DNA from: an uncultured Planctomycetia bacterium
GTDB lineage: Bacteria; Omnitrophota; Gorgyraeia; CAYWPX01
Reading direction: 5' to 3'
NCBI GenBank assembly: GCA_964460615.1
Contig: CAYWPX010000002.1
Span: 71,220-135,219 of the forward strand
Length of the DNA stretch: 64,000 nt
The first letter of the stretch is position 1, and the number at the start of each line of letters is the position of its first letter. A program made the translations under genes and the position numbers. Below are positions 3,597-59,148 of this stretch, in pieces. A model generated the notes under the pieces. The model was given only the letters and a program-made list of their open reading frames with translations. It had not been told where the DNA came from and searched no databases.

Positions 3597-4640
3597 TTAA
3601 ATCCCTGAAAGAAATTTATTCTCATCTATCTTTTTTATAACATCCTCTACGGTTATAGCTTTCATGCATTTGAAATCATCACAGCTAAAATTATAGCACG
3701 GCACTTCACAGCCGATATCCGAGCTGATAACTACCGTATTCTCTTTGCCATATGGCCCGGTAAGATCGGGTTTTGTCGGGCCAAAAAGCGCTACGGTATT
3801 CACCTTCAGGCTATTTGCTATATGCATTGGCCCTGAATCATTTGCTATAACAAGGCTCGACATTTTTAATATTGCTCCTAACTGCTTGAGATTTGTGGCT
3901 CCGGCAAGAATTACCGGTTCTGATCTCATCATGGATTCAATGTCATTAGCTAACTCAATATCTTTTCTGGCGCCGGTTATAACGATCTTTACTCCATATT
4001 TTTCAACTAATCTGTCCGAAAGTTTTGCGAAATTTTCCCGTGGCCATCTTTTGGGATCCCAATTCCCTCCCGGGTTGATAACTACAAGGGTATCTTCCTC
4101 TTTTATACCTTTTCTTCTTAAAAGGTTTTTTGCGAATTCAGCGTCATTCTTTGATATATAAAATTCATATCCCAGCCCTTTTACATCAGCACCTAAAAAA
4201 CCGGCGATCTTAAGAAAATAATCGACCTTATGGGCTGCCTCGAGAGGGGGCTCGATGATTTCAGTCAGGAACGCATTTCCCTTTATACTAGCATAGCCGA
4301 TCCTGTTTTTTATTCCCGACAAAACTGCTATAAGCCGTCTTGTAATAGAGCGATGGAGGAATATTGCCGTATCAAACTTCAAAGACCTGATCTCATTTAT
4401 CAGCTTAAGTTTTCCGAATAAGGATCTGTGTATGCCTTTTTCGTCATATATTATAAGTTTATCTACCGAAGGGTTGAGATCCAACACCTCTTTGGTCCTT
4501 GGCGCAATAAGACATGCTATGTACGCCTTGGGATAGAGATTCCTTATGGCACGGATAAATGGCGTAGAAAAAATGACATCCCCTATCCAATTGACTTCCA
4601 CAATAAGAATTCTTTTTGGGTTAATACCGGCTTTTGTCAT
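3597..4640 (-). CDS. glycosyltransferase family 9 (heptosyltransferase family) paralog
   Basis: KRILIVEVNWIGDVIFSTPFIRAIRNLYP. C-terminal motif CEVPCYNFSCDDFKCM. The ORF-track N-terminal extension to 4790 overlaps the upstream deacetylase gene, so I take the start as the internal Met (MTKAGINPKRILIV). Confidence 0.75.
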   Translation of the reverse strand: MTKAGINPKRILIVEVNWIGDVIFSTPFIRAIRNLYPKAYIACLIAPRTKEVLDLNPSVDKLIIYDEKGIHRSLFGKLKLINEIRSLKFDTAIFLHRSITRRLIAVLSGIKNRIGYASIKGNAFLTEIIEPPLEAAHKVDYFLKIAGFLGADVKGLGYEFYISKNDAEFAKNLLRRKGIKEEDTLVVINPGGNWDPKRWPRENFAKLSDRLVEKYGVKIVITGARKDIELANDIESMMRSEPVILAGATNLKQLGAILKMSSLVIANDSGPMHIANSLKVNTVALFGPTKPDLTGPYGKENTVVISSDIGCEVPCYNFSCDDFKCMKAITVEDVIKKIDENKFLSGI

Positions 4641-5451
4641 GCGAATTTTCCGTATCCCCTCGTCTGAAATTCCTGAATTTTTTCTTAATATCTTTGACGA
4701 ATGTATAGTAACCGCTGATCTCAAACCAAAAAACAATGGGGTTATCGCAATTCCTGGTAATCTTGATCCTCGGCATAGCGTAAACGTCATTTCTCTTATA
4801 TTTAAACGGAGGATTGGTGCTTACCGCTCCCATATATCCTGAATCTTCGACGATTTTTTTGACCTCATCATTCATTCTGCCCAAAGGATAGCAGAACATG
4901 TTAACCTTTGACCCGCTATTGGCCTCGATGACACTTTTTGAACCGGCTATCTCGTCGGATAAGACCGATACGTCTTTTATCATATCCAAAAACGGGTGGC
5001 TTTTGGTATGGCTGCCGAACTGGATCCTGTCTTTTGACATACGGCGGATCTCGTCCCAAGTAAGATAATTATCTTTGCCAATATAATCGGTAATAATAAA
5101 GATCGTTGCCGGGATATCATATTTTTTTAGTATGGGATAGGCATTTTTATAATTATCTTCATATCCATCGTCAAATGTAACAGCCACGACCTTGTCCGGC
5201 ATCTCTAAATTGCTTTTAATGCGCGAAATCAATTCATCAAGCGGTATAACCGAATATTCGTTATCGCGCAGGAATTTCATATGCTTTTCAAAACTCTCGG
5301 AAGAGACGAGAAGATTATCATCCCCCGGATATTCGGCTATCTGGTGATACATCATCACAGGAGGTACGTAGATGCTCCTCAGAGCAGTGCCGATGACAGC
5401 ATAAATTGCTATAACAATTACTATTATCGTAAATAATCTTTTTAATTTCAT
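4621..5451 (-). CDS. polysaccharide deacetylase (CE4/NodB domain), membrane-anchored
   Basis: N-terminal TM helix, then VAVTFDDGYEDNY...ATIFIITDYIG...HTKSHPFL, which are NodB-homology motifs. Confidence 0.8.
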   Translation of the reverse strand: MKLKRLFTIIVIVIAIYAVIGTALRSIYVPPVMMYHQIAEYPGDDNLLVSSESFEKHMKFLRDNEYSVIPLDELISRIKSNLEMPDKVVAVTFDDGYEDNYKNAYPILKKYDIPATIFIITDYIGKDNYLTWDEIRRMSKDRIQFGSHTKSHPFLDMIKDVSVLSDEIAGSKSVIEANSGSKVNMFCYPLGRMNDEVKKIVEDSGYMGAVSTNPPFKYKRNDVYAMPRIKITRNCDNPIVFWFEISGYYTFVKDIKKKFRNFRRGDTENSHDKSRY

Positions 5452-6554: not shown

Positions 6555-8711
6555 TCAGGAATTAAAAATTGCCTGTCCGGATTCATCATTTGAGAAATTC
6601 TGGTTACGATTTTCCCGTTTTTTATTTAAATCGGTATCTATATACTCTGAAACAGCTTTCATGACCTCTTCGACTTTGATATCTTTCATACATTTATTAT
6701 TCTTGAGGCACCCGGGCTTATAACACGGGGAACAATTTATGCCGCTTCTTATGATTTTTACATTACCGGGCGCATGTCTTTTGGGATCAGTAGGCCCGAA
6801 AAGCGCCACACAAGGCACGTTCAGGCTTGAAGCCACATGCATAGGAGCGCTGTCGCTTGTGACCAGAACGCTCATTTTATTTATCAAGGCTATCAGGTCC
6901 CTCAAATCTGTTTTACCCGCTGCAATAATGGGTTTACTCTGGGTCTTGGAAGCGATCTCCTTGGCAAGGTCAATATCAAGTTTGGATCCTATTATCACAA
7001 CCCTTGTATTATATTTTTTTGCTATCTCATCACAAAATTTGGCAAAGTATTCAGCCGGCCATCTTTTGGTCTGCCATTTTGCACTGGACCCCGGGTTGAT
7101 ACCTACAAGGCATTTTTGAGTATTGAACCAGTTCTCTTTCAGGAATTTATCAGCCCATTGGTCCTGCACCTTGCCCGGCCAAAGCTCTAAACCTGGGTCT
7201 TCAAGCTTGATCCCTAACATCGATAATACCCTGAACTGATGCTCTATAGGGCCGATATCCGGAATATTATTTTTTATCTTGTTATTCAACAGGAATGACC
7301 ACTTCTTATTATCATAGCCGAATCTTTTGGGCGCAAGACTTAAGAGAGCCAACAAATGGCTCGTCCGGTTATTCTGAAGATCTATAACAATATCAAAACA
7401 ATTTTTCCTTAAATAGCTTCCGATCTTAAGTATATCCTTTATCCCTTTTTTCTCAGGATCAAATATTATCTCATCATCTATATAAGTGCATCCGGCAAGA
7501 ACCTGCCTTGACTGAAGCCCTACAAGGACTTTTATAACGGCATTAGGAAATTTTTTTCTTATAGCCCGAAGGCTGGGAACTGACAATATAACGTCCCCGA
7601 TAGCGCTTATCTTTATTACCATAATATTAAGGCTTTCGAGGGCCTCTTCATACACCTTTAGAGTGCTTTCAAGCATCTTCTTGACGCTGAAGTTATCTTC
7701 TACATTCTTCCGTCCGTTTATAGCAAGTTGTTGCGCAAGATTTTTGTCTTTTGCTATCTTCAGTATTGCTTCTGACATTCCTTTCGGGTCATTAGGGAAG
7801 CATAATAATCCGTTGATATTATTTTTAATCACATCAAGGACCCCGCCGACCCTCGTCGCAACTACAGGCACCCCTGAGGCCTGGGCCTCAATAATGGTCC
7901 TTCCGAACGCTTCGGGAGTTGTTGTGGCAGAAACAAGGACATCCATCTTAGAAAGAACCTCGGGTATATTTTCCTGAAATCCCATAAACTCTACGATAGG
8001 TTGTAACCCAAGTCTTCTTATAAGTAACTCCAGCTCCTCTTTGTATTTCAATTTATCTTTTGACGCGTCCCCCACAATCAATACCTTAAGTTTCGGAATT
8101 GCCCTTGATACCAAAGCCGCCGCCTTAATAAAATCCGTGTGCCCCTTAAGCGGCGTTATCCGCGCTATTATACCCATTGTAAATTCATTTTTATTTTTAT
8201 CTCCGGGCGAGGAAAATCTGAACTTATCAAGATCAACCCCTCTATGGATGATCCTAATCCTGTTATAAGGGACTCCGAAATCCTCTATCATATGCTTAGC
8301 AATGGGATTTGATATGGCTATGACAAATTTTCCCCATCCCATTACGTAACTAAATATATTTTTGGAATAATACCCATGCGCTGAGGTTATAAATTTCACA
8401 TTGGTAATGCGTGAAGCAAAAAATGCCGCTATTGCGGGTACCCTGCTTCTGGCGTGCACAATATCGATCCTCTCGTCTTTAATTATTTTAACGAGCTCCC
8501 GGACCATCCTGATAACAGTAAGCGGGGATTTTTTATACACGGGAAGAGTATAGTGTCTGATCCCTGAGCGATCTAAGTGGCTTGTAAGCGGCCCACCGCC
8601 TGAGACTACGATAGATTTATGTTTATTTTCGGCCAAAAATCTGGCCACATCTATAGTCCCGCGCTCAACACCGCCGTATTCCAGCTTTGGTAATATTTGA
8701 AGTATATTCAT
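6555..8711 (-). CDS. fusion protein: N-terminal GT4 glycosyltransferase plus C-terminal GT9 heptosyltransferase-family domain
   Basis: Residues 1-360 are GT4-like (YGGVERGTIDVARFL...EAFGRTIIEAQASGVPVVATRVGGVLDVI). Residues about 365-718 are GT9-like (IMVIKISAIGDVILSVPSLRAIRKKFP...). The protein ends with the same Cys motif CSPCYKPGCLKNNKCM. Confidence 0.8.
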   Translation of the reverse strand: MNILQILPKLEYGGVERGTIDVARFLAENKHKSIVVSGGGPLTSHLDRSGIRHYTLPVYKKSPLTVIRMVRELVKIIKDERIDIVHARSRVPAIAAFFASRITNVKFITSAHGYYSKNIFSYVMGWGKFVIAISNPIAKHMIEDFGVPYNRIRIIHRGVDLDKFRFSSPGDKNKNEFTMGIIARITPLKGHTDFIKAAALVSRAIPKLKVLIVGDASKDKLKYKEELELLIRRLGLQPIVEFMGFQENIPEVLSKMDVLVSATTTPEAFGRTIIEAQASGVPVVATRVGGVLDVIKNNINGLLCFPNDPKGMSEAILKIAKDKNLAQQLAINGRKNVEDNFSVKKMLESTLKVYEEALESLNIMVIKISAIGDVILSVPSLRAIRKKFPNAVIKVLVGLQSRQVLAGCTYIDDEIIFDPEKKGIKDILKIGSYLRKNCFDIVIDLQNNRTSHLLALLSLAPKRFGYDNKKWSFLLNNKIKNNIPDIGPIEHQFRVLSMLGIKLEDPGLELWPGKVQDQWADKFLKENWFNTQKCLVGINPGSSAKWQTKRWPAEYFAKFCDEIAKKYNTRVVIIGSKLDIDLAKEIASKTQSKPIIAAGKTDLRDLIALINKMSVLVTSDSAPMHVASSLNVPCVALFGPTDPKRHAPGNVKIIRSGINCSPCYKPGCLKNNKCMKDIKVEEVMKAVSEYIDTDLNKKRENRNQNFSNDESGQAIFNS

Positions 8712-8722
8712 AATTTGTTTGC

Positions 8723-8782
8723 TCTAGGGTCCAGGGTCTAGGGTTTAAGGTTTTCAGCCCTACAGCCTGGAGCCGGGAGCGA
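8723..8782 (-). repeat. tandem heptamer array CTAGGGT/CCAGGGT/CTAGGGT/TTAAGGT followed by CAGCCCT/ACAGCCT/GGAGCCG; shares the 12-mer tagggtttaagg with the 168-233 element
   Basis: Read directly in the spacer between the LpxL-ELM1 stop and the GT4-GT9 start. Confidence 0.55.
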
Positions 8783-8792
8783 TTTTAGTTTT

Positions 8793-10736
8793 TTACACAA
8801 ACCTCTCAACAGCCTTTAAGACCTTTACGTTATCATCCAAAGGCTTGAGGGTTATGATCTGCTTCAATAATTTGTCAGAAAATTCCGCTATTTTTTCAGG
8901 GCCGGTAAAAACTATGTTGCCCTCCGAACTAAGATCTTTAAGCATGGATAAATGCTTCGAGCCCGACTTTATTACTAACGGCTCGAAGACCAGGACCTTT
9001 TTCCCGCTTGATATGGCTTCAGAGACCATAGAGCTTGAATCGCCGGATACAACTATAATATCAGAAATGCCCATTATGCCGGAAAGCGCAAAATCATAAT
9101 TTTTTTCATTGGCTATGACCAAAAATTTGCAGTACTTATTACCGGTAAGCCTCTTTTTGATAGTGTCTTCCACTTCCTTAGAAGTCCTGCGCGATGTAGT
9201 CAGAAGTATCCGGGCGGAATTTTTTTCACAGAAATCCGTGACCTCATCCAATACCTTGTTGATAATTTCATTATTGATCACAAAGCTGTCGTTTGAACCG
9301 CCGATAATGACCCCCACATTGATAGAGTCCCCCGGTTGTACCAATTGAAGAATCTTATTTTTAGACTCCTCCAAAAGATCCTTTGAAATAAGATTTGTAG
9401 TACCTTTGGTAACGACAACTCTATGCGATTCTTTTACTAAGTCATGTTTTGGTATGATAAGGAGATTAAAATGCGACCTTGCCATGAATCCGGGATCCAT
9501 AGAAGCAATATTCCTGGCGTTATTATCGGATTTTGCAAATATATTTACAGGGACCATCGACGAACCTGTAGAAATAATTATATCGCCGTATGTATTGACC
9601 AAATTTTTGTAAGAATCCGCCGTTAAAGCAAATTTTAATGCGACTCTGGGAATTTTATAGAATAAGGCCATAGAAAGACAAATAAACATATTTTTTCTTA
9701 AATTATTTTTAAATTTTATATCCAACTCTTTCACCGGAGTGTCAGATACTTTATAACCTTTTTCAAACCTCAGCTTCATAATCTTTTCGGCAATGGACCT
9801 GGACTGATTGAGGTGTCCCTGCTTTCCATCGCTTAAAATTATAATAGTTTTAAGCGGGGTGGATTTCCATCTTTTATGCACCCAGAGCCACTGGTCGGGA
9901 AATCTCCTGATATATGACTCCAGGATATTTGAGTATTTGGTTAAATTTACAGACTCGTCTGCAAATTTTTTGCCGGTATTTGTGATTTCAAGGGGCTCTT
10001 CGATATATATTGTATGCTTTGGCCCCTTCTCTCTGACAATAAATGTCGGCAATATTACAGCACCCGTTGATTCTGCCAGGTTCACAACCCCGGCTGCAAA
10101 AGAAGTAGGCCTTCCGAAAAAATCAACAAATACTCCGCGCCTCCCGGCATCCTGGTCGGATAAAACCCCTATCAGCTTATTCTCCCTTAAATCCTTGAAT
10201 ATCTCTCTGGTAGCCATACCTTTTTTTACTACTTTGCAACCTTTTATCTGGCGATAGAAGTTTAATAATCCGTTTAAGGCCTTCATCTTCTGCTCTCGCG
10301 CTAGCACTGACAGAGGATAGCCTATAATGGCGCTAGTAATACTGGTTATCTCCCAGTTACCAAAATGAGCCGTTAAAAATATAACGCCTTTTTTTTTGGA
10401 AAGTGCCTTATCTATGCGATCCATATTTTTTACTTCTATATATTCGCTTACATACCTTTTATTAACTCTGGGCAGAGTAAAGACCTCCACTATCACTTGG
10501 CCGAAGTTCTGATACATCTTTTTTATCAGGCTATCAATTTCTTCCGGAGATCTTTCGCCTTTGAACGCCGCCTTCATATTGGCATAGGCAACACGCTTTC
10601 TTTTGATATTCAGGTAATATGCAAGCGTCCCGAAACATCTGCCGATAAATAACCCTGCTCTGACAGGAATTAATAAAAATACCAGGCTAAATATTAGCGC
10701 TATAAATGAGAGAATCAAGTCTGCTAAGTAAAGCAT
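8793..10736 (-). CDS. lpxL: fusion: lipid A late acyltransferase (LpxL/HtrB family) N-terminal domain plus ELM1-family (PF06258-like) C-terminal domain
   Basis: N-terminal TM, then LTAHFGNWEI (HxGNWE motif of LpxL/LpxM), ...FPDQWLWVHKRWK. The C-terminal approx. 340 aa contain GVIIGGSND, LLTTSRRTSKE and VVSGDSSSMVSEA, reminiscent of ELM1-family proteins. Confidence 0.7.
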   Translation of the reverse strand: MLYLADLILSFIALIFSLVFLLIPVRAGLFIGRCFGTLAYYLNIKRKRVAYANMKAAFKGERSPEEIDSLIKKMYQNFGQVIVEVFTLPRVNKRYVSEYIEVKNMDRIDKALSKKKGVIFLTAHFGNWEITSITSAIIGYPLSVLAREQKMKALNGLLNFYRQIKGCKVVKKGMATREIFKDLRENKLIGVLSDQDAGRRGVFVDFFGRPTSFAAGVVNLAESTGAVILPTFIVREKGPKHTIYIEEPLEITNTGKKFADESVNLTKYSNILESYIRRFPDQWLWVHKRWKSTPLKTIIILSDGKQGHLNQSRSIAEKIMKLRFEKGYKVSDTPVKELDIKFKNNLRKNMFICLSMALFYKIPRVALKFALTADSYKNLVNTYGDIIISTGSSMVPVNIFAKSDNNARNIASMDPGFMARSHFNLLIIPKHDLVKESHRVVVTKGTTNLISKDLLEESKNKILQLVQPGDSINVGVIIGGSNDSFVINNEIINKVLDEVTDFCEKNSARILLTTSRRTSKEVEDTIKKRLTGNKYCKFLVIANEKNYDFALSGIMGISDIIVVSGDSSSMVSEAISSGKKVLVFEPLVIKSGSKHLSMLKDLSSEGNIVFTGPEKIAEFSDKLLKQIITLKPLDDNVKVLKAVERFV

Positions 10737-13206: not shown

Positions 13207-14169
13207 CTATGCTCGTGGATGCGTCTTGTCATACACGGCTTTGAGGCCATCCATAGTAACATGAGTATAAATCTGAGTTGTTGATAGATTAAGATGCCCC
13301 AATAACTCCTGCACACTTCTGAGATCAGCCCCTCTATTGAGTAGATGCGTAGCGAATGAGTGCCTTAGGCTATGAGGCGATATCCCCTGCCTGAAACTTA
13401 AGGCCTTTATATATTTATCAAGGATCCTTCTAACTGACCTATCTGTCAGCCTTTTGCCATATTTATTCAGAAAAACAGCTGAGTTTTTTTCACCTGACAG
13501 CTTTGCTCGTTTTGAAAAATATCCCCTGATTGATTTAAGGGCCCTGTCCCCGATAGGGCTTAACCTTTCTCTTTTACCTTTGCCTCTCACCTTAAGCACG
13601 CCGCTTATAAAGTCAATGTCATTCTGATTTAAACCTACTAATTCACTTACTCTTATACCGGTAGAGTAAAGCGTCTCCAGGATCGCTTTATCTCTCAATG
13701 AGGCCTCATCATGCCTCTTAAAACGCTTTGTTGTTTGCTCCGAAGGAGCATCCGAAGGAGCATCCGAAGGAGCATCCGAAGGAGCATCCGAAGGAGCATC
13801 CAACGGGGCATCCAATAATTTTGCGATCTCTTCTTCGCTTAAAAAAACCGGCAGTTTTTTATCAAGTTTTGGAGTTGAGATCGATAAAGCCGGGTTTGAC
13901 TTCACGTGTTCTTCCCGGAAAAGGAATTTAAAAAACGACCTGATGCATGAAAGGCGCCTGGCAATTGTGCGTTTGGATAAATTTTTTGTCTTAAGGTAAG
14001 CAAGATATCTTCTAAGGACCAGATAGTCCGCTTCTTCTATGGTGATCTTCAGATCTAAAATAAATTTGTCAAAATCCTTCAGATCATCAGCATAATTGGT
14101 GATAGTATGATTTGAGGCATTCTTTTCGACTCTCAGATATAATAGATATTTATCTACAAGCCTATCCAT
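13207..14169 (-). CDS. xerC: tyrosine site-specific recombinase XerC/XerD family, with an internal (DAPS)n repeat linker
   Basis: Catalytic region HSLRHSFATHLLNRGADLRSVQELLGHLNLSTTQIYTHV. The N-terminal core-binding domain and the catalytic domain are joined by LDAPLDAPSDAPSDAPSDAPSDAPSE. Confidence 0.85.
   Translation of the reverse strand: MDRLVDKYLLYLRVEKNASNHTITNYADDLKDFDKFILDLKITIEEADYLVLRRYLAYLKTKNLSKRTIARRLSCIRSFFKFLFREEHVKSNPALSISTPKLDKKLPVFLSEEEIAKLLDAPLDAPSDAPSDAPSDAPSDAPSEQTTKRFKRHDEASLRDKAILETLYSTGIRVSELVGLNQNDIDFISGVLKVRGKGKRERLSPIGDRALKSIRGYFSKRAKLSGEKNSAVFLNKYGKRLTDRSVRRILDKYIKALSFRQGISPHSLRHSFATHLLNRGADLRSVQELLGHLNLSTTQIYTHVTMDGLKAVYDKTHPRA
13738..13813 (-). repeat. in-frame 12-bp tandem repeat (gaaggagcatcc x5 plus a variant) encoding (DAPS)n inside xerC
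   Basis: The plus strand reads ctccgaaggagcatccgaaggagcatcc... with five near-perfect 12-mers. Confidence 0.8.
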
Positions 14170-18957: not shown

Positions 18958-19004
18958 AATTATACCCCTTTCGGTTTACGGTATTAGGTTATCGTCTGCC
19001 TTCC

Positions 19005-19030
19005 TGCCCTACGGCTTTGCTGTAGGGCAG
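19005..19030 (-). promoter_or_regulatory. 9-bp-stem hairpin (ctgccctac...gtagggcag) in the pilD-aroC spacer, next to a GGT-phase heptamer array
   Basis: Seen directly. No U-tract follows on the transcript strand, so its role is unclear. Confidence 0.35.
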
Positions 19031-19045
19031 GCGAACCGTTAACCA

Positions 19046-19906: not shown

Positions 19907-20761
19907 TTATTTTTTAATGGCCCTATTAAGAGCGTTCTTCATTATATCCACCGGAGCCTTCAAACCAGTCCAGATCTCAAATGCCTTTACACCCTGCCTC
20001 AATAACATCCCGAGGCCGTTTGAATATCTTAATTTATTTTTTATTGCGGATTTTATAAGTTTGGTCTTAAGAGGATTGTAGATACAGTCATATACCGCCA
20101 GATTTTTATGAAGCCATCTTTTATCAACCAGCTCTGTGTCCTTGTCATGCATCCCGCATGGACTGGCGTTAACCAGAAGATCTGAATTAAGTATGAGTTC
20201 TCCGAGCGCGGTTTTATCAAATTTTACGGCGAATACCTCACATCTGGTTTTTGCAGAAAGCTCTTTTGCTAAAACCAGCGCTTTTTTTGAATCAAGATCC
20301 GTAAAAATAATTCTTTTCGCACCGGCTAAAGCCAGCGAAAAAGATATTGCCCTTGCCGCTCCTCCGGCTCCGAAAATAAAGACCGATTTACCTTTGGGGT
20401 TAAATTTAAGGTCCGCTTTTAAAGAATCTATAAAACCAAGCCCGTCGGTATTATATCCTATCATTAGATCATCCTTCACCAGGACCGTATTTACGGCCCC
20501 TATAAACTTCGCCTCGGGGGAAAGTTTATCGAGGTACTTTATGATATTCTCTTTGTGCGGGATCGTAACATTAAAACCTTTTACCCCTATAGACTTGAGG
20601 CCGGATATTGCGTCATGTAAATTCTCCGGTTTCACCTCGAACGGAAAGTACACGCCATTCACACCAAGCTTACTGAAAGCGCTATTATGCATGTTAGGTG
20701 AAAATGTATGCTTAACCGGAAACCCTATTAAACCAAAAACGGATGTCTGGCCATTTATCAT
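19907..20761 (-). CDS. aroE: shikimate dehydrogenase
   Basis: [22 protein letters not shown]...[13 protein letters not shown]. 284 aa. Confidence 0.85.
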
Positions 20762-22293
20762 AGAATAACCCTGGTCTTTTTTTCCAGCATATATATCTTA
20801 TTTATCGCGTTCAGATAGGCTTTCACACTGGCCTCTATAATGTCAGTTGATGCCGCCCTGCCGCTGATTATCCTGTTCTTATACTCAAGTTTCAGTATTA
20901 CTTCTCCGAGAGCATCTTTGCCCCTGGATATCGATTTTATTGAATAATCCAAAAGCCTCGCCTTTATGGAGGTTATCTTTTCTATGGCTTTATAACAAGC
21001 ATCTACCGGCCCGTCGCCTTTTGAAATAGCTTTTACAACTTTCCCTTTTTTGGAAACCTTTACTTCAGCCTGAGGTTCGATCTGACTGCCGCTTGATACA
21101 AAAAAGTAATCGAGTTTAAATATTTCCGGAGTTTCAACAGATTCATCCTCGATCAAAGCAATAAGATCTTCGTCAAAGACCTCTTTTTTCTTATCGGCAA
21201 GAAGTTTGAATTTGACAAAAAACAACTTATCGATCTCTTTTTCATTAAAACTGTAACCGAGTTTTTTTAATCTTTCGGAAAACGCATGCCTGCCGGAATG
21301 TTTACCAAGTACAAGCCTTGAATCGGCCTTCGTAAGCCCTATATCGACAGGGTTTATAATCTCATAGGTCGTGCGCTTTTTCATAACGCCGTCCTGATGA
21401 ATACCTGATTCATGGCTAAATGCGTTGCCGCCCACAATCGCTTTATTTGGCTGCACCGGTATGCCCGTAAGTTTCGATACCAATCGGCTTGTCGCAATGA
21501 TCTCTTTTGTATTAATAGCAGTCTCTACGTTAAAGAGATCTCTGCGGGTCTTTAAGATCATCACTATCTCTTCCATCGAGGCATTACCTGCTCGTTCGCC
21601 TATGCCATTGATCGTGCACTCGACCTGACGGGCGCCGTTTTTTATCGCAGCCAAAGAATTACTTACGCCAAGCCCGAGGTCGTTATGGCAATGTACGCTG
21701 ATAACAGCTTTTTCAATATTAGGAACATTGTTCTTTATATCATTGATCAAAGAACCGTATTCATTCGGTACGGCATAGCCTACAGTGTCAGGAATATTCA
21801 CAGTTGTTGCTCCTGCCTTTATTACGGTTTCAATGACCTTAAAAAGAAACTCTCTTTCGGTCCTTGAAGCATCCTCCGGAGAAAACTCCACATCATACGT
21901 TTTCTTTTTGGCCAAACGAACCGCCCAATCCGCCAAGCGCAAAATCTCCTCTTCGGCTTTTTTGAGCTTGTACTTCATATGGATCTTAGACGTCGCCAGA
22001 AAAACATGGATCCTGGGATGTTTGGAATATTTAATGGCATCGTAACATGTAACTATATCTTTTTCGATAGCTCTGGCTAATCCGCAGATAATAGGCCCTT
22101 TGATTTTTTTTGCGATCTCTTTCACCGAATCAAAATCACCCTTACTTGAAACCGGAAAACCGGCTTCAATAGCATCTACGCCTAACCTAACAAGCTGATT
22201 TGCTATTTCAATTTTCTGCTTGTCGGTCATAGAAGCGCCCGGTGACTGCTCACCATCGCGAAGTGTAGTGTCGAATATAATTATCTTTTCCAT
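20758..22293 (-). CDS. leuA: 2-isopropylmalate synthase
   Basis: [19 protein letters not shown]...[21 protein letters not shown]. 511 aa with a LeuA dimerisation C-terminus. Confidence 0.9.
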
Positions 22294-22408
22294 AATTCAC
22301 CTTAGAAATCAGATAACAGAATTCAGAAATCAGAAAAAATCATCTTTTATCCCTGCCTGCCGGCAGGCAGGTATTCTCTGTTTTCTGTCATCTGTCTTCT
22401 GTCATCTA
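22294..22408 (-). promoter_or_regulatory. nested palindromic spacer between ilvC and leuA: five AGAAATC-type heptamers, a perfect 20-bp GC palindrome, then four TCTGTCA-type heptamers
   Basis: The plus strand reads gaaatca|gataaca|gaattca|gaaatca|gaaaaaa ... cctgcctgccggcaggcagg ... tctgttt|tctgtca|tctgtct|tctgtca. On the transcript strand a U-rich run follows the hairpin about 12 nt later. Confidence 0.5.
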
Positions 22409-23401
22409 TTAATGTTTCATCCAAGGCATCATTTCCCTTAGATCTCTTCCAACTTTTTCTATCGGGTGATTATCCTGTTCTTTTAATATCTTGTTGAAAT
22501 TCGGTCTGCCCATTTCATTTTCTTTTATCCATTCACGGGCAAATTTTCCTTTTTGTATCTCTTTAAGGATTTTTTTCATTTCTTTTCTTGTTTTTTCAGT
22601 AATTATTCTCTTACCCCTGGTAATATCTCCATAACAAGCAGTGTTGGAAACGCTTCTTCTCATCCCCGAAATTCCTTTTTCCTGAATAAGGTCCGTAATA
22701 AGTTTCAGTTCGTGAAGAACTTCGAAATATGCTATCTCGGGCTGATATCCTGCCTCCAAAAGCGTATCAAAACCTGCCATGATCAATTCCGATGCCCCGC
22801 CGCACAGTACCGCCTGTTCTCCGAATAGATCCGTCTCTGTCTCTTCTTTAAATGTCGTTTCTATGACACCTGCTTTTGTTGCTCCTATCCCTTTAGCATA
22901 TGCGAGCGCTAGCTTAAGAGCGTTACCCGATGCATCCTGATAGATCGCTACCAGGCTCGGAACGCCTTTTCCCTCTTCGTACATACGCCTTACAAGAGCG
23001 CCCGGGCCTTTTGGAGCAATCATGAAAACATCGACTTTCTTCGGAGGCCTTATCTGTTTAAAGTGAATATTAAACCCATGTGAAAATACAAGGGATTTCC
23101 CTTTTTTCAGGTTCTTTTTTATAGCATCATTATAAACCTTTGCCTGGACATGGTCCTGAGTAAGGATCTGGATGATATCCGCTTTCTTTGCAGCTTCTTC
23201 GACAGTCAGAACCTCAAAGCCGTCCTTTTTTGCCAAATCGTAATTTGGGGTGTTCGGCAGTTCGCTGACGACAACATTAAGCCCGCTATCTCTTAAGCAT
23301 AAGCTCTGCCCGCGCCCCTGGATACCATATCCGATGATCGCGATCGTCTTATCTTTTAGGATACCGAGATCCGCATCTTTGTCATAATAAATTTTTGCCA
23401 T
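22409..23401 (-). CDS. ilvC: ketol-acid reductoisomerase
   Basis: [28 protein letters not shown] (NADP Rossmann) and 330 aa class I KARI. Confidence 0.9.
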
Positions 23402-23729
23402 TTCATTTCCTCCTTAGATGAGTCCCCCAAAGTAATTTCGGGGGCGAATCATCCCGACGAATGTGATAAAATTATCGAGCATTTAGCGCAGTTATGCTAA
23501 ATGCGCAGAAAATTTTATCACTTCTTATAAGTCGGGACACTATTATTCATTATCTATTTTTTTACTCTACCGCAGAGCAAAAGCTATTCCTTATTCAATC
23601 TCAATTGCAATCTCTAAATTCTTCCGCATTGGGAAGAATTTGCCCCAACGAGTATGCTAAAATTATCGAGAGCACTTAGCACTTTAGTGCTAGTGCTAAG
23701 GGAATTTTAGCATATGTCACGAGTTGGGG
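23402..23729 (-). repeat. 328-bp structured spacer carrying two diverged copies of an approx. 90-bp nested-hairpin element (shared 12-mer aaaattatcgag), plus two smaller hairpins
   Basis: Element 1 is about 23447-23541: atcccgac / gtgataaaatt / gcatttagc..gctaaatgc / aattttatcac / gtcgggac. Element 2 is about 23641-23728: ccccaac / gctaaaatt / agcact..agtgct / aattttagc / gttgggg. There is also aattcttccgcattgggaagaatt and cccccaaagtaatttcggggg next to the ilvC RBS. Confidence 0.55.
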
Positions 23730-24203
23730 TTACTCAATTTCTATCGCAATCTTCCCGGTTCTTGTCATATCCTTAACTCTATAAGGCTTAAGATGGTCGA
23801 GAAGCTTAACAACATTCTCATTCGTACCGACAAATTCCACTAATGCATGCTTTGAATCATGGTGCAATACATTAGCCTTGTTTTTTTCTAAAAGCGCAAG
23901 GACTTTCGATTTTACTTTATCGCCAAATTCGACCTTGAATAAAAGAAGTTCCCTGTCTATGTAGTCTTTCTTGGTAAAATCTTTTATACTTATAACATCA
24001 ATAAGTTTACCAAGCTGCTTTTTAACCTGTTCGAGTATCTTGTCATCTCCTTTGACCACAATCGTCATTTTGGAAATGGTCGGATCCTCTGTTTCGCCTA
24101 CAGCCAATGAGTCTATATTGTAGCCACGGGCGCTGAATAACCCAGATATTCTGGCCAAGACTCCTGACTTATTTTCTACCAGTACTGATATTGTGTGCCG
24201 CAT
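23730..24203 (-). CDS. ilvN: acetolactate synthase small (regulatory) subunit
   Basis: MRHTISVLVENKSGVLARISGLFSARGYNIDSLAV is the ACT domain of IlvH/IlvN. 157 aa. Confidence 0.85.
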   Translation of the reverse strand: MRHTISVLVENKSGVLARISGLFSARGYNIDSLAVGETEDPTISKMTIVVKGDDKILEQVKKQLGKLIDVISIKDFTKKDYIDRELLLFKVEFGDKVKSKVLALLEKNKANVLHHDSKHALVEFVGTNENVVKLLDHLKPYRVKDMTRTGKIAIEIE

Positions 24204-24294
24204 GATTTATTTAAACTCCGATTCGTACTTCGTCGTTCGTACTTCGTATATCGTTTCTTTTCGATGTACTATGTACGAAATACGATGTACTGCT
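24204..24294 (-). repeat. GTAC-rich tandem-heptamer element (family A copy 1) directly upstream of ilvN
   Basis: ttcgtac|ttcgtcg|ttcgtac|ttcgtat ... cgatgta|ctatgta|cgaaata|cgatgta. Confidence 0.55.
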
Positions 24295-25965
24295 TTACGC
24301 TAACGAATTAATCATCTTATTAATCGCCTGACCGGCCGGAACCATCGGAAAAACATTCTCTTCTTCCTCAACGACAAATTCCACCACAACCGTATTTGGA
24401 GTGTTTATAGCTTTCTCCAAAGCAGGCCTGACATCTTCTTTCTTTGCAACTCTAATGCCTACCGCGCCATAGGCCTCAGCCAGTTTTACAAAATCAGGAT
24501 TTTCTAAACGCACCTGAGAATATCTTCTCTTATAAAATAATTCCTGCCATTGTCTGACCATACCTAAGTAAGAATTATTAAGTATGATTATTTTGACTGG
24601 AATCTTATTAAATACCGCTGTTGCCAATTCCTGAATATTCATCTGAATAGAACCATCCCCGGCTATATCAAAAACAAGCCTCTCAGGACACCCTATCTGG
24701 GCGCCAATCGCGGCCGGAAACCCGAATCCCATTGTCCCAAGGCCGCCACTCGATAGAAAAGTTCTCGGTTCTTTATATTTAAAAAACTGGGCAGCCCACA
24801 TCTGGCTCTGGCCGACTTCAGTGACTATGATACAATCGCCTTTAGTGACCCTGTAAAGCTCCTCGATAACATACTGCGGTTTGATCTTTTTTGAATGTTC
24901 CGCATACACCAAAGGAAACTCTTTTTTCCATTCATTGATCTTAAACAGCCAATTTCCCGAATCACACGGGGAAACGATTTTATTTAATTCGGTTAAAATA
25001 CTCTTTGCATCACCGACGATCGGAATATGCACAGGCACATTTTTACTGACCGACGACGGATCAATATCGATATGGATAATATTGGCATGGGGGGCGAACT
25101 CATCGATCTTACCTGTAACCCTGTCGTCAAATCTTGCACCAATTGCAATGATCAAATCCGACTCCATTATAGCGTGATTCGCATAGGCCGTACCATGCAT
25201 ACCGAGCATCCCCAAAGACAACTCATGCTCCCCGGGAAATGCCCCCATAGCCATCAAAGTCGTAGTAACGGGCGCTTTTACTTTTTCGGCGAATTCCTTT
25301 ACTTCTTGGGAGGCATCGGCAATAATAGCTCCTCCTCCGACATAAATAATCGGGCGTTTGGAATTTGCTATTGCTTTTGCGGCTTTTTTTATCTGTCCCG
25401 GATGCCCTATATAAGTAGGCTTGTACCCCCTAATGGACGCTTCAGCCGGATAATGATACTCGGTCTCCTGGAGCTGAATATCACTCGGGAGATCTATAAG
25501 TACCGGCCCCGGACGGCCAGTGCGGGCAATATGAAATGCCTCTTTAATTATTTGAGACAGGTCTTCAATATTTTTAACTAAATAATTATGTTTTGTAATA
25601 GGACGCGTGATACCGGTTATATCGGCTTCCTGAAAAGCATCGTTTCCGATCAAAAATGTTTTTACCTGGCCTGTGATAGCAACCATCGGTATCGAATCCA
25701 TATACGCCGTCGCAATCCCCGTAACCAAATTTGTGGCACCCGGGCCTGATGTAGCAATACAGACTCCGACCTTTCCTGTGGCTCTGGCAAAACCATCCGC
25801 AGCATGCGCTGCTGCCTGTTCATGGCGGGTAAGCATAAAATTTAAACCGCCATCATATAAAGCATCAAAAAGAGGAAGGACCTGCCCTCCGGGGTAGCCA
25901 AAAACTATCTGCACTCCTTCTTTTTTTAAACTCTCAACAACTATTCTTGCTCCTGATAATTTCAT
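24295..25965 (-). CDS. ilvB: acetolactate synthase large subunit (thiamine-diphosphate enzyme)
   Basis: [27 protein letters not shown]...[15 protein letters not shown]. 556 aa. Confidence 0.9.
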
Positions 25966-26059
25966 TTAAAACCTCGCTTAAGCACTGCGTATTAAGTACG
26001 GCGTACGGCGCAAAAAACTTATTTTTCGCGATACGCTGTACACAATACGCTATACTGCT
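25966..26059 (-). repeat. GTAC-rich tandem-heptamer element (family A copy 2) directly upstream of ilvB
   Basis: gtacggcgtacggcgc ... cgcgata|cgctgta|cacaata|cgctata. Confidence 0.55.
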
Positions 26060-27712
26060 TTATTTGAACACTGCTCCTTCATCAGCTGACTGGACATGCT
26101 CGGAATATCTAACAAGGTATCCTTCGGTCACTTTCGGTTTTGGCTCCACCCACTTTGCCAAACGCGATTTAATTTCAGCTGCAGTCAATTTTATATCAAT
26201 GCTTCTTTTTGGTATATCGATCGAGATCTCATCTCCGTCTTTTACTATAGCTATAGGTCCGCCTGCCGCCGCCTCAGGCGATACATGGCCGATGCACGGC
26301 CCCCTGGTCCCGCCGGAAAATCTCCCGTCGGTGATAAGCGCTACGCTCTCTCCCAAACCCATACCCATAATAGCAGATGTTGCCGCAAGCATCTCTCTCA
26401 TCCCCGGGCCGCCTTTTGGGCCTTCGTATCTTATAACAACTACAGTACCTTCGGTTATCTTTTTATTCATGATGGCTTCCATTGCAGCCTCTTCCGAATC
26501 AAAAACCTTGGCAACGCCTGTAAATTTTTCCATCGCCTTTGATACGGCAGACTGTTTTACAATAGCACCATTCGGAGCGAGATTACCGAAAAGCACGGCG
26601 ATCCCGCCTTCTTTATGATAGGCATTATCCAATGGTCTTATAACGTCGTCGTCATCAACCCTTGCTTCGCGGGCTATCTGGGATATTTTTTTACCGCTAA
26701 CTGTATCAACATCATTAAGTTTTGATTGCAATCTTTTTATAACAGCGGGTATCCCCCCTGCATATTCAAGGTCTTCCATAAAATGTTCTCCGCCCGGGCG
26801 GATATTACTTATATGAGGTACGGATTTTGATATCTTATCGATCTCTTTTAAAGATAGCGGTATACCAAGCTCATTAGCAAGAGCTTTTATATGCAATACC
26901 GTGTTCGACGAGCCGCCAAGCGCCATATCTATAACTATGGCATTTTCAATAGCCTTTTTAGTCATTATTGATCGCGGAAGAATATTTTTCTTTACGAGCT
27001 GTACTACCCTTTCGCCGCTTGCGTAAGAGATCCTGTCTTTTTTTGCCAGTACCGCTAGAGCAGTCGCACATCCGGGCATGGACATACCCATCGCCTCCGT
27101 AACGCAAGACATGGTATTGGCCGTGTAAAGTCCCTGACAAGAACCAAAGCCCGGGCAAGCGCAGACCTCAAGCTCATTCAACTCTTCCTGATTTATTTCA
27201 CCGCTTTTAAATTGTCCTATCGCTTCAAACGTATCATGCACCAGATCAAGCCTTCGGCCTTTATATCTGCCGGTGATCATAGGGCCTGCGGTTACAATAA
27301 CCGTCGGAATATTAATCCTGGCGGTTGCCATAAGCATCCCGGGAGTGATCTTGTCGCAATTTGTCAAACAGACCAATCCGTCAAAAGAATGGGCTTTAAC
27401 AATAGTCTCTACCATGTCAGCTATCAATTCTCTCGACGGAAGAGAATATCTCATCCCCGCGTGGCCCATCGCAATCCCGTCGCAAATCCCGGGAACTCCG
27501 AAGAAAAACGGTACTCCTCCGGCTGCAATAATACCTCTTTCAATAAATCTTTCCAAGCGTTTCATCCCTATATGGCCGGGTATAATGTCATTAACAGTGG
27601 TCGCTACAGCGATAAAGGGTTTTCCCATATCGCTTTTTGAAAGTCCTGTTGCATAAAGAAGCGCCCTGTGCGGCACCCTCTCGACTCCGCGCTTGATTTT
27701 ATCTGATCTCAT
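26060..27712 (-). CDS. ilvD: dihydroxy-acid dehydratase
   Basis: [20 protein letters not shown] and [17 protein letters not shown] (Fe-S cluster Cys) as in IlvD. 550 aa. Confidence 0.9.
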
Positions 27713-35229: not shown

Positions 35230-35355
35230 TTATCCGTTCTTCGTACGGGGTACGGCGTCGTGCGTGTTAAAAAATTAGTTATTATTTATATTTATTTTCA
35301 CGCCGTACACAATACGTTATACGCCGTACTTTTTTGTTAAGAGCCATGATCACAA
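35230..35355 (-). repeat. GTAC-rich tandem-heptamer element (family A copy 3) with an AT-rich core, directly upstream of the CPBP gene
   Basis: ttatccgttcttcgtacggggtacggcgtcgtg ... AT-rich 40 nt ... cgccgta|cacaata|cgttata|cgccgta. Confidence 0.55.
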
Positions 35356-48226: not shown

Positions 48227-48323
48227 TATTTATCCGTTCTGCGTACGGTGTACAACGTACTGCGTGATGTAAAAATTATTTATTTTTTACGCCGTACGAA
48301 ATACGACATACGATGTACTGCTT
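48227..48323 (-). repeat. GTAC-rich tandem-heptamer element (family A copy 4) directly upstream of mlaF
   Basis: tatttatccgttctgcgtacggtgtacaacgtactgcgtg ... tacgccgtacgaaatacgacatacgatgtactgc. It shares its first approx. 22 nt with copy 3. Confidence 0.55.
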
Positions 48324-53419: not shown

Positions 53420-53514
53420 TTATTGCCTCCGTGTAATTCAGATGACAGAAGTCAGAAAACAGAAATCAGATTTTTTTCTGTCTTCTGACCTCTTTTTTCT
53501 ATTTTCTTTCTTTA
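53420..53514 (-). promoter_or_regulatory. 5' spacer of clpC carrying a CAGAA-phase heptamer array and hairpin (gtcagaaaacag...ctgtcttctgac), related in words to the ilvC-leuA spacer
   Basis: cagatga|cagaagt|cagaaaa|cagaaat|cagattt then ttttctgtcttctgac. It shares gatgacagaag with 22294-22408. Confidence 0.45.
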
Positions 53515-55758: not shown

Positions 55759-55832
55759 TTATGCTATTATGCGATTAGGTATTTTTTACCTAATTACCCA
55801 ATCACATAATCGCCCAATCGCTGATTTTTTAC
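55759..55832 (-). terminator. long imperfect nested palindrome (GCGATTA-type 8-mers x4, inner 8-bp hairpin attaggta-ttttt-tacctaat, inverse arm), followed on the transcript strand by UGUUUUUAC; candidate ilvE terminator
   Basis: The plus strand reads gcgattaa|gcaattat|gctattat|gcgattag gtatttttt acctaatt ... taatcgcccaatcgc. Confidence 0.35.
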
Positions 55833-56708: not shown

Positions 56709-56825
56709 AATTACCTCTTATCCCGTACTTCGCCCATCGTATTTCGTACATTGTTTTTTAAAATTATTATTTTAATTTTTTCAATATACGATATACGAAG
56801 TACAATGTACTGTTTTTTTAAAGTA
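56709..56825 (-). repeat. GTAC-rich tandem-heptamer element (family A copy 5) with an AT-rich core, directly upstream of ilvE
   Basis: ccgtact|tcgccca|tcgtatt|tcgtaca ... AT-rich ... atatacg|atatacg|aagtaca|atgtact. Confidence 0.55.
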
Positions 56826-58700: not shown

Positions 58701-59148
58701 GTGAATTGTGAATAGTTAAAAAATAAATTGTTACAATAATTTAATTAAAGTCATGGTCATTCTATTTATCTTTTCAATCTTTTCCAATAACTCGCTTAAT
58801 TTCTGATTTGCTAAATAATTTAACTTGTTAGATATTATTAATTGCGTTTCAAGTTCGGCGCTACTTGACAAAGTAATAAATAGAAATTGCTTGAATTCTT
58901 TGTTATGGTGCCTCATAAATCCTTCTGCAATATTCGAAGGCACCGAAATACTAGATCGTCTTATTTGATTAACTAACCCATAAAGCTCGTGACTTGGAAA
59001 TTCTTTTGTAATTTTATATATTTCTTCAACTAACTCTATGCCTTCCTGCCAAATCCTTAAGTTCTTGAAATTCTTTATTTTTTTTCCATTCACTATTCAC
59101 GTTTTTTGGTTTTATTACAATTCACCAACTACTATTCACTATTCACGG
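58701..59148 (-). mobile_element. candidate small cassette: four-helix-bundle IVS-family gene bracketed by inverted GTGAAT-heptamer repeats
   Basis: Left end, plus strand: gtgaattgtgaatagtt (about 58701-58717). Right end, minus strand: gtgaattgtaat, gtgaatagtgaatgg (overlapping the GTG start) and gtgaatagtgaatag (last codons of lysS). Confidence 0.3.
58731..59093 (-). CDS. four-helix-bundle protein of the 23S rRNA intervening-sequence (IVS) protein family (Avd-like fold)
   Basis: NLRIWQEGIELVEEIYKITKEFPSHELYGLVNQIRRSSISVPSNIAEGF matches the IVS-protein signature (W-Q-x-A..L....Y..FP..E.Y.L..Q.RR...S...NIAEG). The apparent start is GTG. Confidence 0.75.
   Translation of the reverse strand: MNGKKIKNFKNLRIWQEGIELVEEIYKITKEFPSHELYGLVNQIRRSSISVPSNIAEGFMRHHNKEFKQFLFITLSSSAELETQLIISNKLNYLANQKLSELLEKIEKINRMTMTLIKLL

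Follow-up and report, generated by a model that had tools for sequence, protein, structure and literature searches.

Nested hairpin modules and displaced gene ends between ilvN and ilvC of an uncultured Omnitrophota bacterium suggest serial insertion behind a stop codon

The ilvN-ilvC spacer and its parts

In the uncultured bacterium (GTDB phylum Omnitrophota) whose contig CAYWPX010000002.1 supplied the 64,000-nt stretch of DNA analysed here (the window), ilvN and ilvC are separated by a spacer of exactly 328 nt (23402-23729) that holds several hairpins. The original prediction, made from the letters of the sequence, had described two tandem elements of about 90 bp in this spacer and had offered a riboswitch- or attenuator-like leader for ilvC, a protein-binding structured RNA, or a duplicated mobile element, as explanations. 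The spacer length, the listed stems of both elements, the hairpin between them and a GC hairpin were each recovered from the sequence, and folding gave a z-score of -8.3 on the transcript strand, far below shuffled sequence, and of -8.6 on the other strand. Overlooked at that stage was that the spacer also contains displaced ilvN 3′ ends. All genes around the spacer are on the minus strand, and its parts follow one another on the mRNA, 5′ to 3′, as A1, E2, H3, A2, H4, A3, E1, the linker UGAUUCG, H5, ACUCAUCU, AAGGAGG and the ilvC AUG, at the positions given below.

23730-23752, minus strand: A1, the last 23 nt of ilvN with its functional TAA (...AAG ATT GCG ATA GAA ATT GAG TAA)
23643-23729, minus strand: E2, a hairpin-A module (z -6.5 when folded alone; 70.8 bits with covariance model R1)
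23616-23641, minus strand: H3, a 10-bp hairpin with 100% complementary arms, the B half of the E2 unit
23591-23613, minus strand: A2, a displaced second ilvN 3′ end (AGATTGCAATTGAGATTGAATAA, encoding IAIEIE*), from the direct-repeat and gene-end scans
23560-23582, minus strand: H4, a small hairpin between A2 and A3 (UUUUGCUCUG-CGG-UAGAGUAAAA), from folding
23543-23558, minus strand: A3 (AATAGATAATGAATAA), tentatively a degenerate third ilvN end, 13 of its 16 nt (81%) being identical to A2
23452-23537, minus strand: E1, a hairpin-A module (z -7.3 when folded alone; 73.5 bits with covariance model R1)
23416-23451, minus strand: second half of the E1 unit, comprising the linker UGAUUCG, H5 and ACUCAUCU, from layout comparison and folds
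23424-23444, minus strand: H5, a GC hairpin extended by pairing of the linker GAUGA with UCAUC
23399-23415, minus strand: ilvC Shine-Dalgarno sequence AAGGAGG (23408-23415) and ATG (23399-23401), from the sequence and the list of open reading frames (ORFs)

E2 begins at the base right after the ilvN TAA. Its outer stem (CCCCAAC/GTTGGGG, 23643-23649 with 23722-23728) is followed inwards by an A/T-rich middle stem of 12 bp (23653-23664 with 23703-23714), with an asymmetric internal loop present, and by an inner stem (23675-23683 with 23692-23700) that forms an extra hairpin nested in the apical loop. E1 has the corresponding outer stem TCCCGAC/GTCGGGA (23452-23458 with 23531-23537), a middle stem of 11 bp (23463-23473 with 23511-23521) and an inner nested stem (23480-23488 with 23496-23504). 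The 12-mer originally noticed in both elements is shared, but is really a 27-nt arm that is 85% identical between them (23453-23479 and 23644-23670) and for which 0 chance matches are expected in the window. That E1 and E2 are diverged copies of one module is borne out by an end-to-end alignment with compensatory stem changes; their overall identity is about 66%, so this is no recent tandem duplication. Both elements are real, but each is only the first half of a two-hairpin unit (E1 with H5, E2 with H3). The stem of H3 has 10 bp rather than the 9 first counted, and about 36 nt, H5 included, separate the end of E1 from the Shine-Dalgarno sequence, instead of the roughly 30 nt to the ribosome-binding site first given.

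A2 reads AG ATT GCA ATT GAG ATT GAA TAA and differs from A1 by four mismatches, every one of them at a third codon position. With a z-score of 5.7 against shuffles, it is the sole such duplication among the 28 gene ends in the window that have a usable downstream spacer. By reading of the sequence, the 3′ arm of H3 (GGAAGAATTT) is also similar to ilvN coding sequence just upstream of A1 (GGGAAGATT). An independent assembly, that of run SRR12487046 in Logan (L120; related metagenomic loci are referred to by such numbers), contains a 401-nt stretch, including the whole spacer, that matches the window base for base.

The surrounding genes are those listed below. The homologues bearing names from Candidatus Omnitrophota have 62-68% identity for IlvN and 82-85% for IlvC. 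Genes for DprA, a pilin-like protein and a prepilin peptidase lie within a few kb of the locus. GC skew is negative throughout the window, and every large ORF is encoded on the minus strand.

26060-27712, minus strand: ilvD (NCBIfam)
24295-25965, minus strand: ilvB (NCBIfam)
23730-24203, minus strand: ilvN, acetolactate synthase small subunit (NCBIfam NF008864, 1e-56; ORF list)
22409-23401, minus strand: ilvC, ketol-acid reductoisomerase (NCBIfam NF004017, 1e-162)
20758-22293, minus strand: leuA (NCBIfam)

E1 and E2 belong to one structured module family

Motif searches over loci fetched by alignment to IlvN identified two homologues of E1 and E2, one straight after the ilvC stop codon in L132 and L135 (two samples, identical sequence), where it carries ATTCCGACTTATAAACAATGTAAAAATTATCAAAGATAATTTTTACATATTCGTCGGAAT, and one within the ilvN-ilvC spacer of L126. 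The inner hairpin is missing from both of these copies, and that of E1 and E2 is therefore a nested addition in the apical loop. In an alignment of the four sequences (E1, E2, L132/L135 and L126), 97% of cells pair over the whole hairpin and 9 of 18 stem pairs show compensatory change with both sides differing, a count that was reached by 0 of 500 shuffles and compares with 0-2 in slid controls. Covariance model R1, built from this alignment, scored the copies at 70-85 bits in sense and 20-35 bits in antisense orientation; all copies therefore have the same orientation relative to transcription. E1 and E2 are thus members of one structured module family.

Hairpin A of the unit consists of a G+C outer stem (CCCRAC/GTYGGG), an asymmetric internal loop and an A/T-rich middle stem (TAAAATT/AATTTTA), and its apical loop accepts a further nested hairpin as an insertion of 28-30 nt. 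An (A)ATTC linker, hairpin B and CTCAT(T) follow in that order, the linker and the CTCAT motif pairing with each other to form the base of B. This pairing covaries, being GAUGA/UCAUC in the window, AUAAAU/AUUUAU in L132, UUAAU/AUUAA in L170 and CAAU/AUUG in L217, and the L129 insert is read as having the same pairing as L132; the layout with its paired linker and CTCAT motif recurs in all five. In the window, L170 and L217, 5-7 nt lie between the end of the unit and the ilvC Shine-Dalgarno sequence; L217 is the closest IlvC relative (89%) and has a module of this layout before its ilvC ribosome-binding site. In L129 and L132 the unit is instead followed immediately by a displaced ilvC end. We also considered an RNase E-type single-stranded AU-rich linker, an idea that was weakened by the folds, in which the linker pairs with the CTCAT motif.

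The DNA sampled for module searches is heavily biased towards ilv loci. Within it, family members were located only at ilv junctions of several probable Omnitrophota lineages, after ilvN or ilvC and always in sense orientation, and a stricter search (perfect 7-nt outer stem plus linker, 418 kb) returned only ilvN-ilvC (window, L152, L170) and ilvC-leuA (L132, L162) junctions, again all in sense. Covariance model R1 found no copy beyond its own training set in the window and 84 loci (384 kb) together with 57 kb and 44 kb of relatives (about 485 kb). Element identity between lineages (0.56-0.71) is at the level of the flanking coding genes (0.60-0.72), and the homology of the modules is detectable only by motif and structure searches; local alignment of the whole spacer to 17 related spacers gave the ilvN-end copy in L124 as its sole match. 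Scans of JGI (Joint Genome Institute) metagenomes with the 27-nt 3′ arm and of viral sequences with a shorter form gave 0 matches each. A genome-contig scan with TAAAATTATCGAGN{20,45}AATTTTA, a pattern that proved too loose, returned 119 loci, all by chance (best local score 24 against the elements), and the TCCCGA/TCGGGA motif count in the window was unremarkable, with occurrences scattered through coding DNA. Literature searches on palindromic repeats of Omnitrophota, and on the combination of repetitive extragenic palindromes (REPs), target duplication and a stop codon, yielded nothing relevant.

Most orthologous spacers lack the family. The ilvN-ilvC spacers of five syntenic relatives are unstructured and contain no module, with lengths of 75 nt in L121 (IlvN identity 76%), 13 nt in L123, 82 nt in L213 (IlvC 88%), 18 nt in L216 (IlvC 87%) and 15 nt in L211, whereas L217, L170 and L126 do carry related modules. 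Among 58 JGI loci with a measurable spacer, 31 have one of 10-25 nt and the median is 23 nt. Related spacers free of the nested stems, which the original prediction had named as the observation that would count against it, are thus found in most relatives.

Gene-end duplications around hairpin inserts

The ends of 729 ORFs from the window and loci L121-L205 were scanned for downstream duplications, with reversed sequence as a control. At a score of at least 24 there were 13 duplications against 1 in the control, and at a score of at least 28 there were 7 against 0. Of these 13, about three (a spurious plus-strand ORF and two borderline hits in the window) do not represent clean duplications of a gene end. 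The clean cases, given below, include hairpin inserts flanked by gene-end duplications in eight related metagenomic lineages other than that of the window.

Window: duplication of the ilvN end
L124: duplication of the ilvN end
L145:3960-4075: duplication of the ilvC end, flanking one or two hairpins, as in the next six
L129:3690-3840: duplication of the ilvC end
L132:1545-1710 (with L135): duplication of the ilvC end
L162:3950-4065: duplication of the ilvC end
L156:2415-2505: duplication of the ilvB end
L185:2340-2500: duplication of the ilvB end
L196:1555-1665: duplication of the end of an ORF not assigned to a gene

The duplications are 18-30 nt in length and the non-coding inserts between them 27-139 nt. 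In L124, the closest IlvN relative (81%), the ilvN end is doubled (27 nt, 2 synonymous differences) around a 27-nt insert (L124:835-915); this insert differs from the modules of the window, and its 5′ part repeats the start of the downstream copy in inverted orientation, the two forming a hairpin. The downstream copy usually abuts or overlaps the next start codon, as in TAATG in L156 and TAA-GAT-ATG in L145, and therefore keeps the initiation region of that gene, while the upstream copy keeps the upstream frame closed. Between the two copies, 23 of 28 codon differences are synonymous and 5 non-synonymous, exchanges such as AGA/CGT (Arg) and CTG/TTG (Leu) included, and 24 of 31 nucleotide differences are at third positions. 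Under a null of random substitution 14% would be synonymous, and the observed synonymous count was attained in 0 of 20,000 simulations.

A larger arrangement was found in L209 (55-4135) and L207 (80-4135), where two ilvN alleles flank a 3.1-kb island encoding a HEAT-repeat protein, an unknown protein and AbiEii; no integrase is present in the 3.1-kb cargo of L209. The L209 repeat is 474 nt long, and its alleles have 88% nucleotide identity, with 35 synonymous and 13 non-synonymous codon differences and 42 of 56 nucleotide differences at third positions. This type of arrangement was recovered in three separate samples. In L207 the upstream ilvN copy is truncated by the contig start, and a second pair of unknown protein and AbiEii lies between aroK and dprA (L207:10604-11973).

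Two further repeats were seen in the window. At about 59088-59135 the end of the gene at 59132-60571 (AACTAAAAACCGTGAATAGTGAAT) has a second copy 20 nt downstream, which has 2 mismatches and overlaps the next ORF start; this may be another small duplication of a gene end or a tandem repeat of GTGAATA. The other is a direct repeat of 30 nt, its copies (53085-53114 and about 53313-53342, 198 nt apart) differing by 1 mismatch, that surfaced through the spurious plus-strand ORF; it lies inside an 805-aa gene (51002-53419, minus strand) and points to an internal protein repeat.

Origin and possible role of the modules

The spacer carries insertion scars, its module family is missing from most orthologous spacers, and the stems of the family have evolved by compensatory change. 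Taken together, these data favour an origin of the spacer from palindromic modules that were inserted one by one behind the stop codon of ilvN (serial insertion), to which we assign a probability of roughly 0.6. At least two, and probably three, modules would be stacked there, E2 with H3 being the newest arrival and E1 with H5 a diverged member of the same two-hairpin family. Each arrival would have landed right behind the functional stop codon and left the final 16-23 nt of ilvN behind as an extra copy further downstream, first seen as A2 and then as the more decayed A3, with older material being shoved towards ilvC by later arrivals; a unit would end a few nt before the next ribosome-binding site or before the displaced end of the upstream gene. 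The modules may have been imported from diverged relatives along with the end of the donor gene, through a homologous anchor in the conserved upstream gene and closure by an illegitimate second junction, and selection would keep only those events that preserve the upstream stop codon and the downstream translation start. Import from relatives is favoured because the two gene-end copies differ in the way coding alleles do; one copy of each gene end would therefore have had a coding history in another lineage. It is favoured over an integrase because one and the same module accompanies different gene ends and the repeats enclose no integrase. In naturally transformable bacteria, homology-facilitated illegitimate recombination imports foreign DNA beside a conserved gene by means of a homologous anchor and a microhomology joint (PMC6382021). 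Such a process would fit the nearby genes for DprA, a pilin-like protein and a prepilin peptidase and would account for the allele-like upstream copy, but is not known to yield a regular 18-30-nt duplication ending at a stop codon. The import step is uncertain, and a structure-specific recombinase, or a transposase making a long staggered cut, is possible instead.

Several observations weigh against serial insertion. The narrow 18-30-nt range of the duplications is no obvious product of illegitimate recombination, neither a transposase nor a dedicated recombinase was seen, and A3 is weak as a third gene end. The window holds 2 module copies in 64 kb, to which covariance model R1 adds none in about 485 kb of related DNA. 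The equal identity of element and coding genes fits long-term purifying selection as well as mobility, and every known family member flanks ilvC in one orientation, with which an ilvC-linked function is compatible. Finally, the strand folding test described below does not tie the stems to RNA rather than DNA. A bolder extension of serial insertion, which we consider unlikely, would have the modules represent an undescribed class of tiny, gene-less mobile hairpin elements in Omnitrophota that integrate precisely behind the stop codons of tightly coupled genes, bring or create a replacement for the last 18-30 nt, are mobilised by a structure-specific recombinase or by transformation-linked recombination, and systematically turn overlapping junctions into hairpin-separated ones throughout the phylum.

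A conserved riboswitch or attenuator for ilvC, as originally suggested, is not supported, and a cis-regulatory structured RNA for this gene, whether a duplicated protein- or metabolite-binding leader or an attenuator, is quite improbable. Such an RNA would suit the fixed sense orientation of all copies, the compensatory stem changes, the invariant unpaired nucleotides (GAU before the 3′ middle arm, and CUCGAU in E1 and E2), the occurrence of members only beside ilvC in several lineages, and, in three loci (window, L217 and L170), the 5-7 nt between unit end and ilvC Shine-Dalgarno sequence. However, the five syntenic relatives do without the module, which is also found after ilvC, before leuA; its apical region tolerates the nested insertion; and the sampled DNA is biased towards ilv loci. 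No Rfam family reached its gathering score anywhere in the 64-kb window, and a search at E ≤ 10 returned nothing usable for the spacer, only miRNA, snoRNA and lncRNA models at E 0.9-9, far under their cut-offs; a T-box leader was not matched at either threshold. The terminator scan gave no site in 23402-23729, where the tails after hairpin A contain 3-4 U in 8 nt, and only those of L207 and L209 (GAUUUUUC) suit a canonical intrinsic terminator. The original prediction had reported no Ile/Val/Leu-rich leader peptide, with which we agree, the spacer containing no credible leader peptide: the only in-frame mini-ORF that could serve an ilv-type attenuator (MRKNLEIAIEIE*) is formed by the displaced ilvN end, lacks a Shine-Dalgarno sequence and starts from an AUG in the loop of H3. 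Over 30 inserts and spacers the sense strand folded better in 16 and the antisense strand in 14 (Wilcoxon p = 0.55), and there is therefore no thermodynamic sign of RNA-specific selection. Two further candidates were rejected. A mobile promoter was suggested by a weak TTAGCA-18-GATAAT inside E1, but such sites occur in the region at chance level (14 found, 12.4 expected), and a 440-aa 'IlvC' (P0124) does not represent an extended leader but a chimera in which the middle of the enzyme is repeated, probably an assembly artefact on a 1.5-kb contig.

The remaining alternatives concern the origin of the spacer. A classical non-autonomous transposon moved in trans, of the miniature inverted-repeat transposable element (MITE), REP or PATE type, with the gene-end copies as its target-site duplication, would explain the outer stems as terminal inverted repeats (7 bp, TCCCGAC/GTCGGGA and CCCCAAC/GTTGGGG), the direct repeats on both sides of E2 with H3 and the homologous copies at different junctions in different genomes. 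It is very unlikely given that the duplications vary in length and are long for target-site duplications (18-30 nt, with 474 nt in L209), that their near-exclusively synonymous divergence is not expected from decay of a target duplication after insertion, that E1 has no matching repeat on its downstream side, that no transposase lies near any copy, and that copies are as few as the 2 in 64 kb, with none elsewhere in about 485 kb. The original prediction's reading of diverged copies of one module, or a duplicated MITE, comes close to the data, since homologues in other lineages and insertion scars exist, but this is not a classical MITE: a short, fixed target duplication and a related transposase were not seen, and the 64 kb hold only 2 copies. 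Miniature site-specific integrative elements, in which the hairpin serves as a recombinase substrate (as in attC or the folded CTX attP) and a replacement gene 3′ end is carried along as e14 does for icd, are likewise highly doubtful. The e14 prophage separates the functional end of icd from a displaced C-terminal fragment, icdC, and the differences between the two are mainly synonymous or conservative (PMC13626634); the inserts described here share its pattern of direct repeats of a gene 3′ end that differ like alleles, and the point of insertion coincides exactly with the stop codon. The outer stem of E2 is moreover close to the attC cores RYYYAAC/GTTRRRY, and tyrosine recombinase genes occur in syntenic contigs. 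Yet e14 is 15 kb long with its own integrase, whereas these inserts are gene-less, measure 27-139 nt and have neither integrase nor cargo between their repeats, only the L209 island nearing the e14 scale. A fixed att core does not explain one module with different gene ends (ilvN, ilvC), the outer stems of E1 and L132 (GAC/GTC) lack the GTT crossover triplet, and the recombinase beside topA resembles the housekeeping Xer type. Only a small chance attaches to a local origin without mobility, in which the gene junction was duplicated in tandem by slippage and palindromes then grew in place by template-switch (fold-back) synthesis. The inverted copy in the L124 insert, the likeness of the H3 3′ arm to ilvN coding sequence and the many spacers whose hairpin arms are 7-nt tandem units, suggestive of repeat expansion in situ, speak for it; but E1 is clearly homologous to copies in L132/L135 and L126, lineages with 57-60% IlvN identity, where it is at a different junction, and synonymous-only divergence of copies is unexpected for duplication in situ. 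That strain variants were joined at a palindrome during assembly has a probability close to nil. The assemblies are metagenomic and the gene-end copies differ as strain alleles would, but two assemblies agree over the 401 nt that include the spacer, the 54-nt period of L124 is judged to be within the span of one short read, the L209-type structure was found in three samples, and L132 and L135 are identical across two.

REPs, bacterial interspersed mosaic elements (BIMEs) and REPINs are intergenic imperfect palindromes that are cotranscribed, often stacked in arrays, and act as stabilisers of mRNA 3′ ends or as weak terminators. REPs are about 35 nt long, occur in hundreds of copies and have a conserved GTAG head and a RAYT (REP-associated tyrosine transposase), with no gene-end duplication. 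The modules of the window resemble the REPs and BIMEs of enterobacteria and the REPINs of Pseudomonas in being palindromes in co-directional operon spacers, with compensatory changes and composite arrays, but they are 85-130 nt long, nested, present in few copies in the sampled DNA and flanked by 18-30-nt gene-end copies; they thus differ in size, sequence and copy number, and no RAYT is among the annotated neighbours. Correia elements of Neisseria and the RUP and BOX elements of pneumococcus are small non-coding hairpin insertions near gene ends that alter operon transcription, processing and termination. Their defined terminal repeats, TA or short target duplications and at least 100 copies per genome were not seen for the modules. 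Of the features that mark a MITE, terminal inverted repeats are present in the form of the 7-bp outer stems, but the flanking repeats are variable and allele-like rather than a short target duplication of fixed length. Integron attC sites are similar in being imperfect hairpins in which an unpaired spacer separates outer from inner boxes and the apex varies, and in lying directly after a gene in fixed orientation. In the modules, by contrast, the conserved part is the inner A/T stem rather than the RYYYAAC/GTTRRRY core, which E2 approaches but E1 and L132, with GAC/GTC, do not, and the neighbourhood consists of housekeeping genes in conserved synteny with no integron integrase or cassette array.

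Under serial insertion, the modules would be transcribed within the ilvB-ilvN-ilvC-leuA run in fixed orientation. They are most likely passive intercistronic stem-loops that replace a tight or overlapping junction and uncouple translation of the genes on either side; an influence on the stability of mRNA segments, or partial termination, is possible as well, as with REP and Correia elements. They are most likely not ligand sensors.

Nearly every co-directional spacer in the window contains one long imperfect hairpin with an A/T-rich loop and arms built of tandem units of about 7 nt (e.g. GTACATC/GTATTTC..., CAGAAGA/CAGATGA... and ACCCTAG/ACCCTGG...), with fold z-scores of -2.2 to -9.4 against mononucleotide shuffles. 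These hairpin spacers are as follows.

8712-8792
18958-19045
22294-22408 (ilvC-leuA)
24204-24294 (ilvB-ilvN)
25966-26059 (ilvD-ilvB)
35230-35355
48227-48323
53420-53514
55759-55832
56709-56825

Hairpins of the same style are present in the related contigs L140, L173, L175, L178, L139, L203 and L216. Another nested palindrome family occurs in L207, with outer arms CGTCATTGCGAG.../...CTCGCAATGACG in at least two of the spacers 5225-5331, 8546-8819 and 9810-9859 and a related GTCATTCTGAGCA... variant in a third; one copy encloses several inner hairpins and has a minimum free energy of -129.8 kcal/mol over 274 nt. Also in L207, the two unrelated spacers ilvN-ilvC (4136-4207) and dprA-topA (13429-13633) each hold a hairpin closed by GGTCGCTCGGGA(C/T), which in the first is followed by GAUUUUUC and is terminator-like.

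The ilvN-ilvC spacer is an extreme case of a genome-wide property and not a unique device. A riboswitch candidate is removed, and the locus becomes instead a datable record of serial insertions behind one stop codon, should the reading preferred here hold. The recurring signature of duplicated gene ends points to a frequent, so far undescribed gain of intergenic structure in an uncultured phylum, and may in addition be a trace of recombination with diverged relatives on a wide scale. Were the modules to influence how mRNA is processed or how stable it is, they would provide a movable means to uncouple the expression of genes within an operon.

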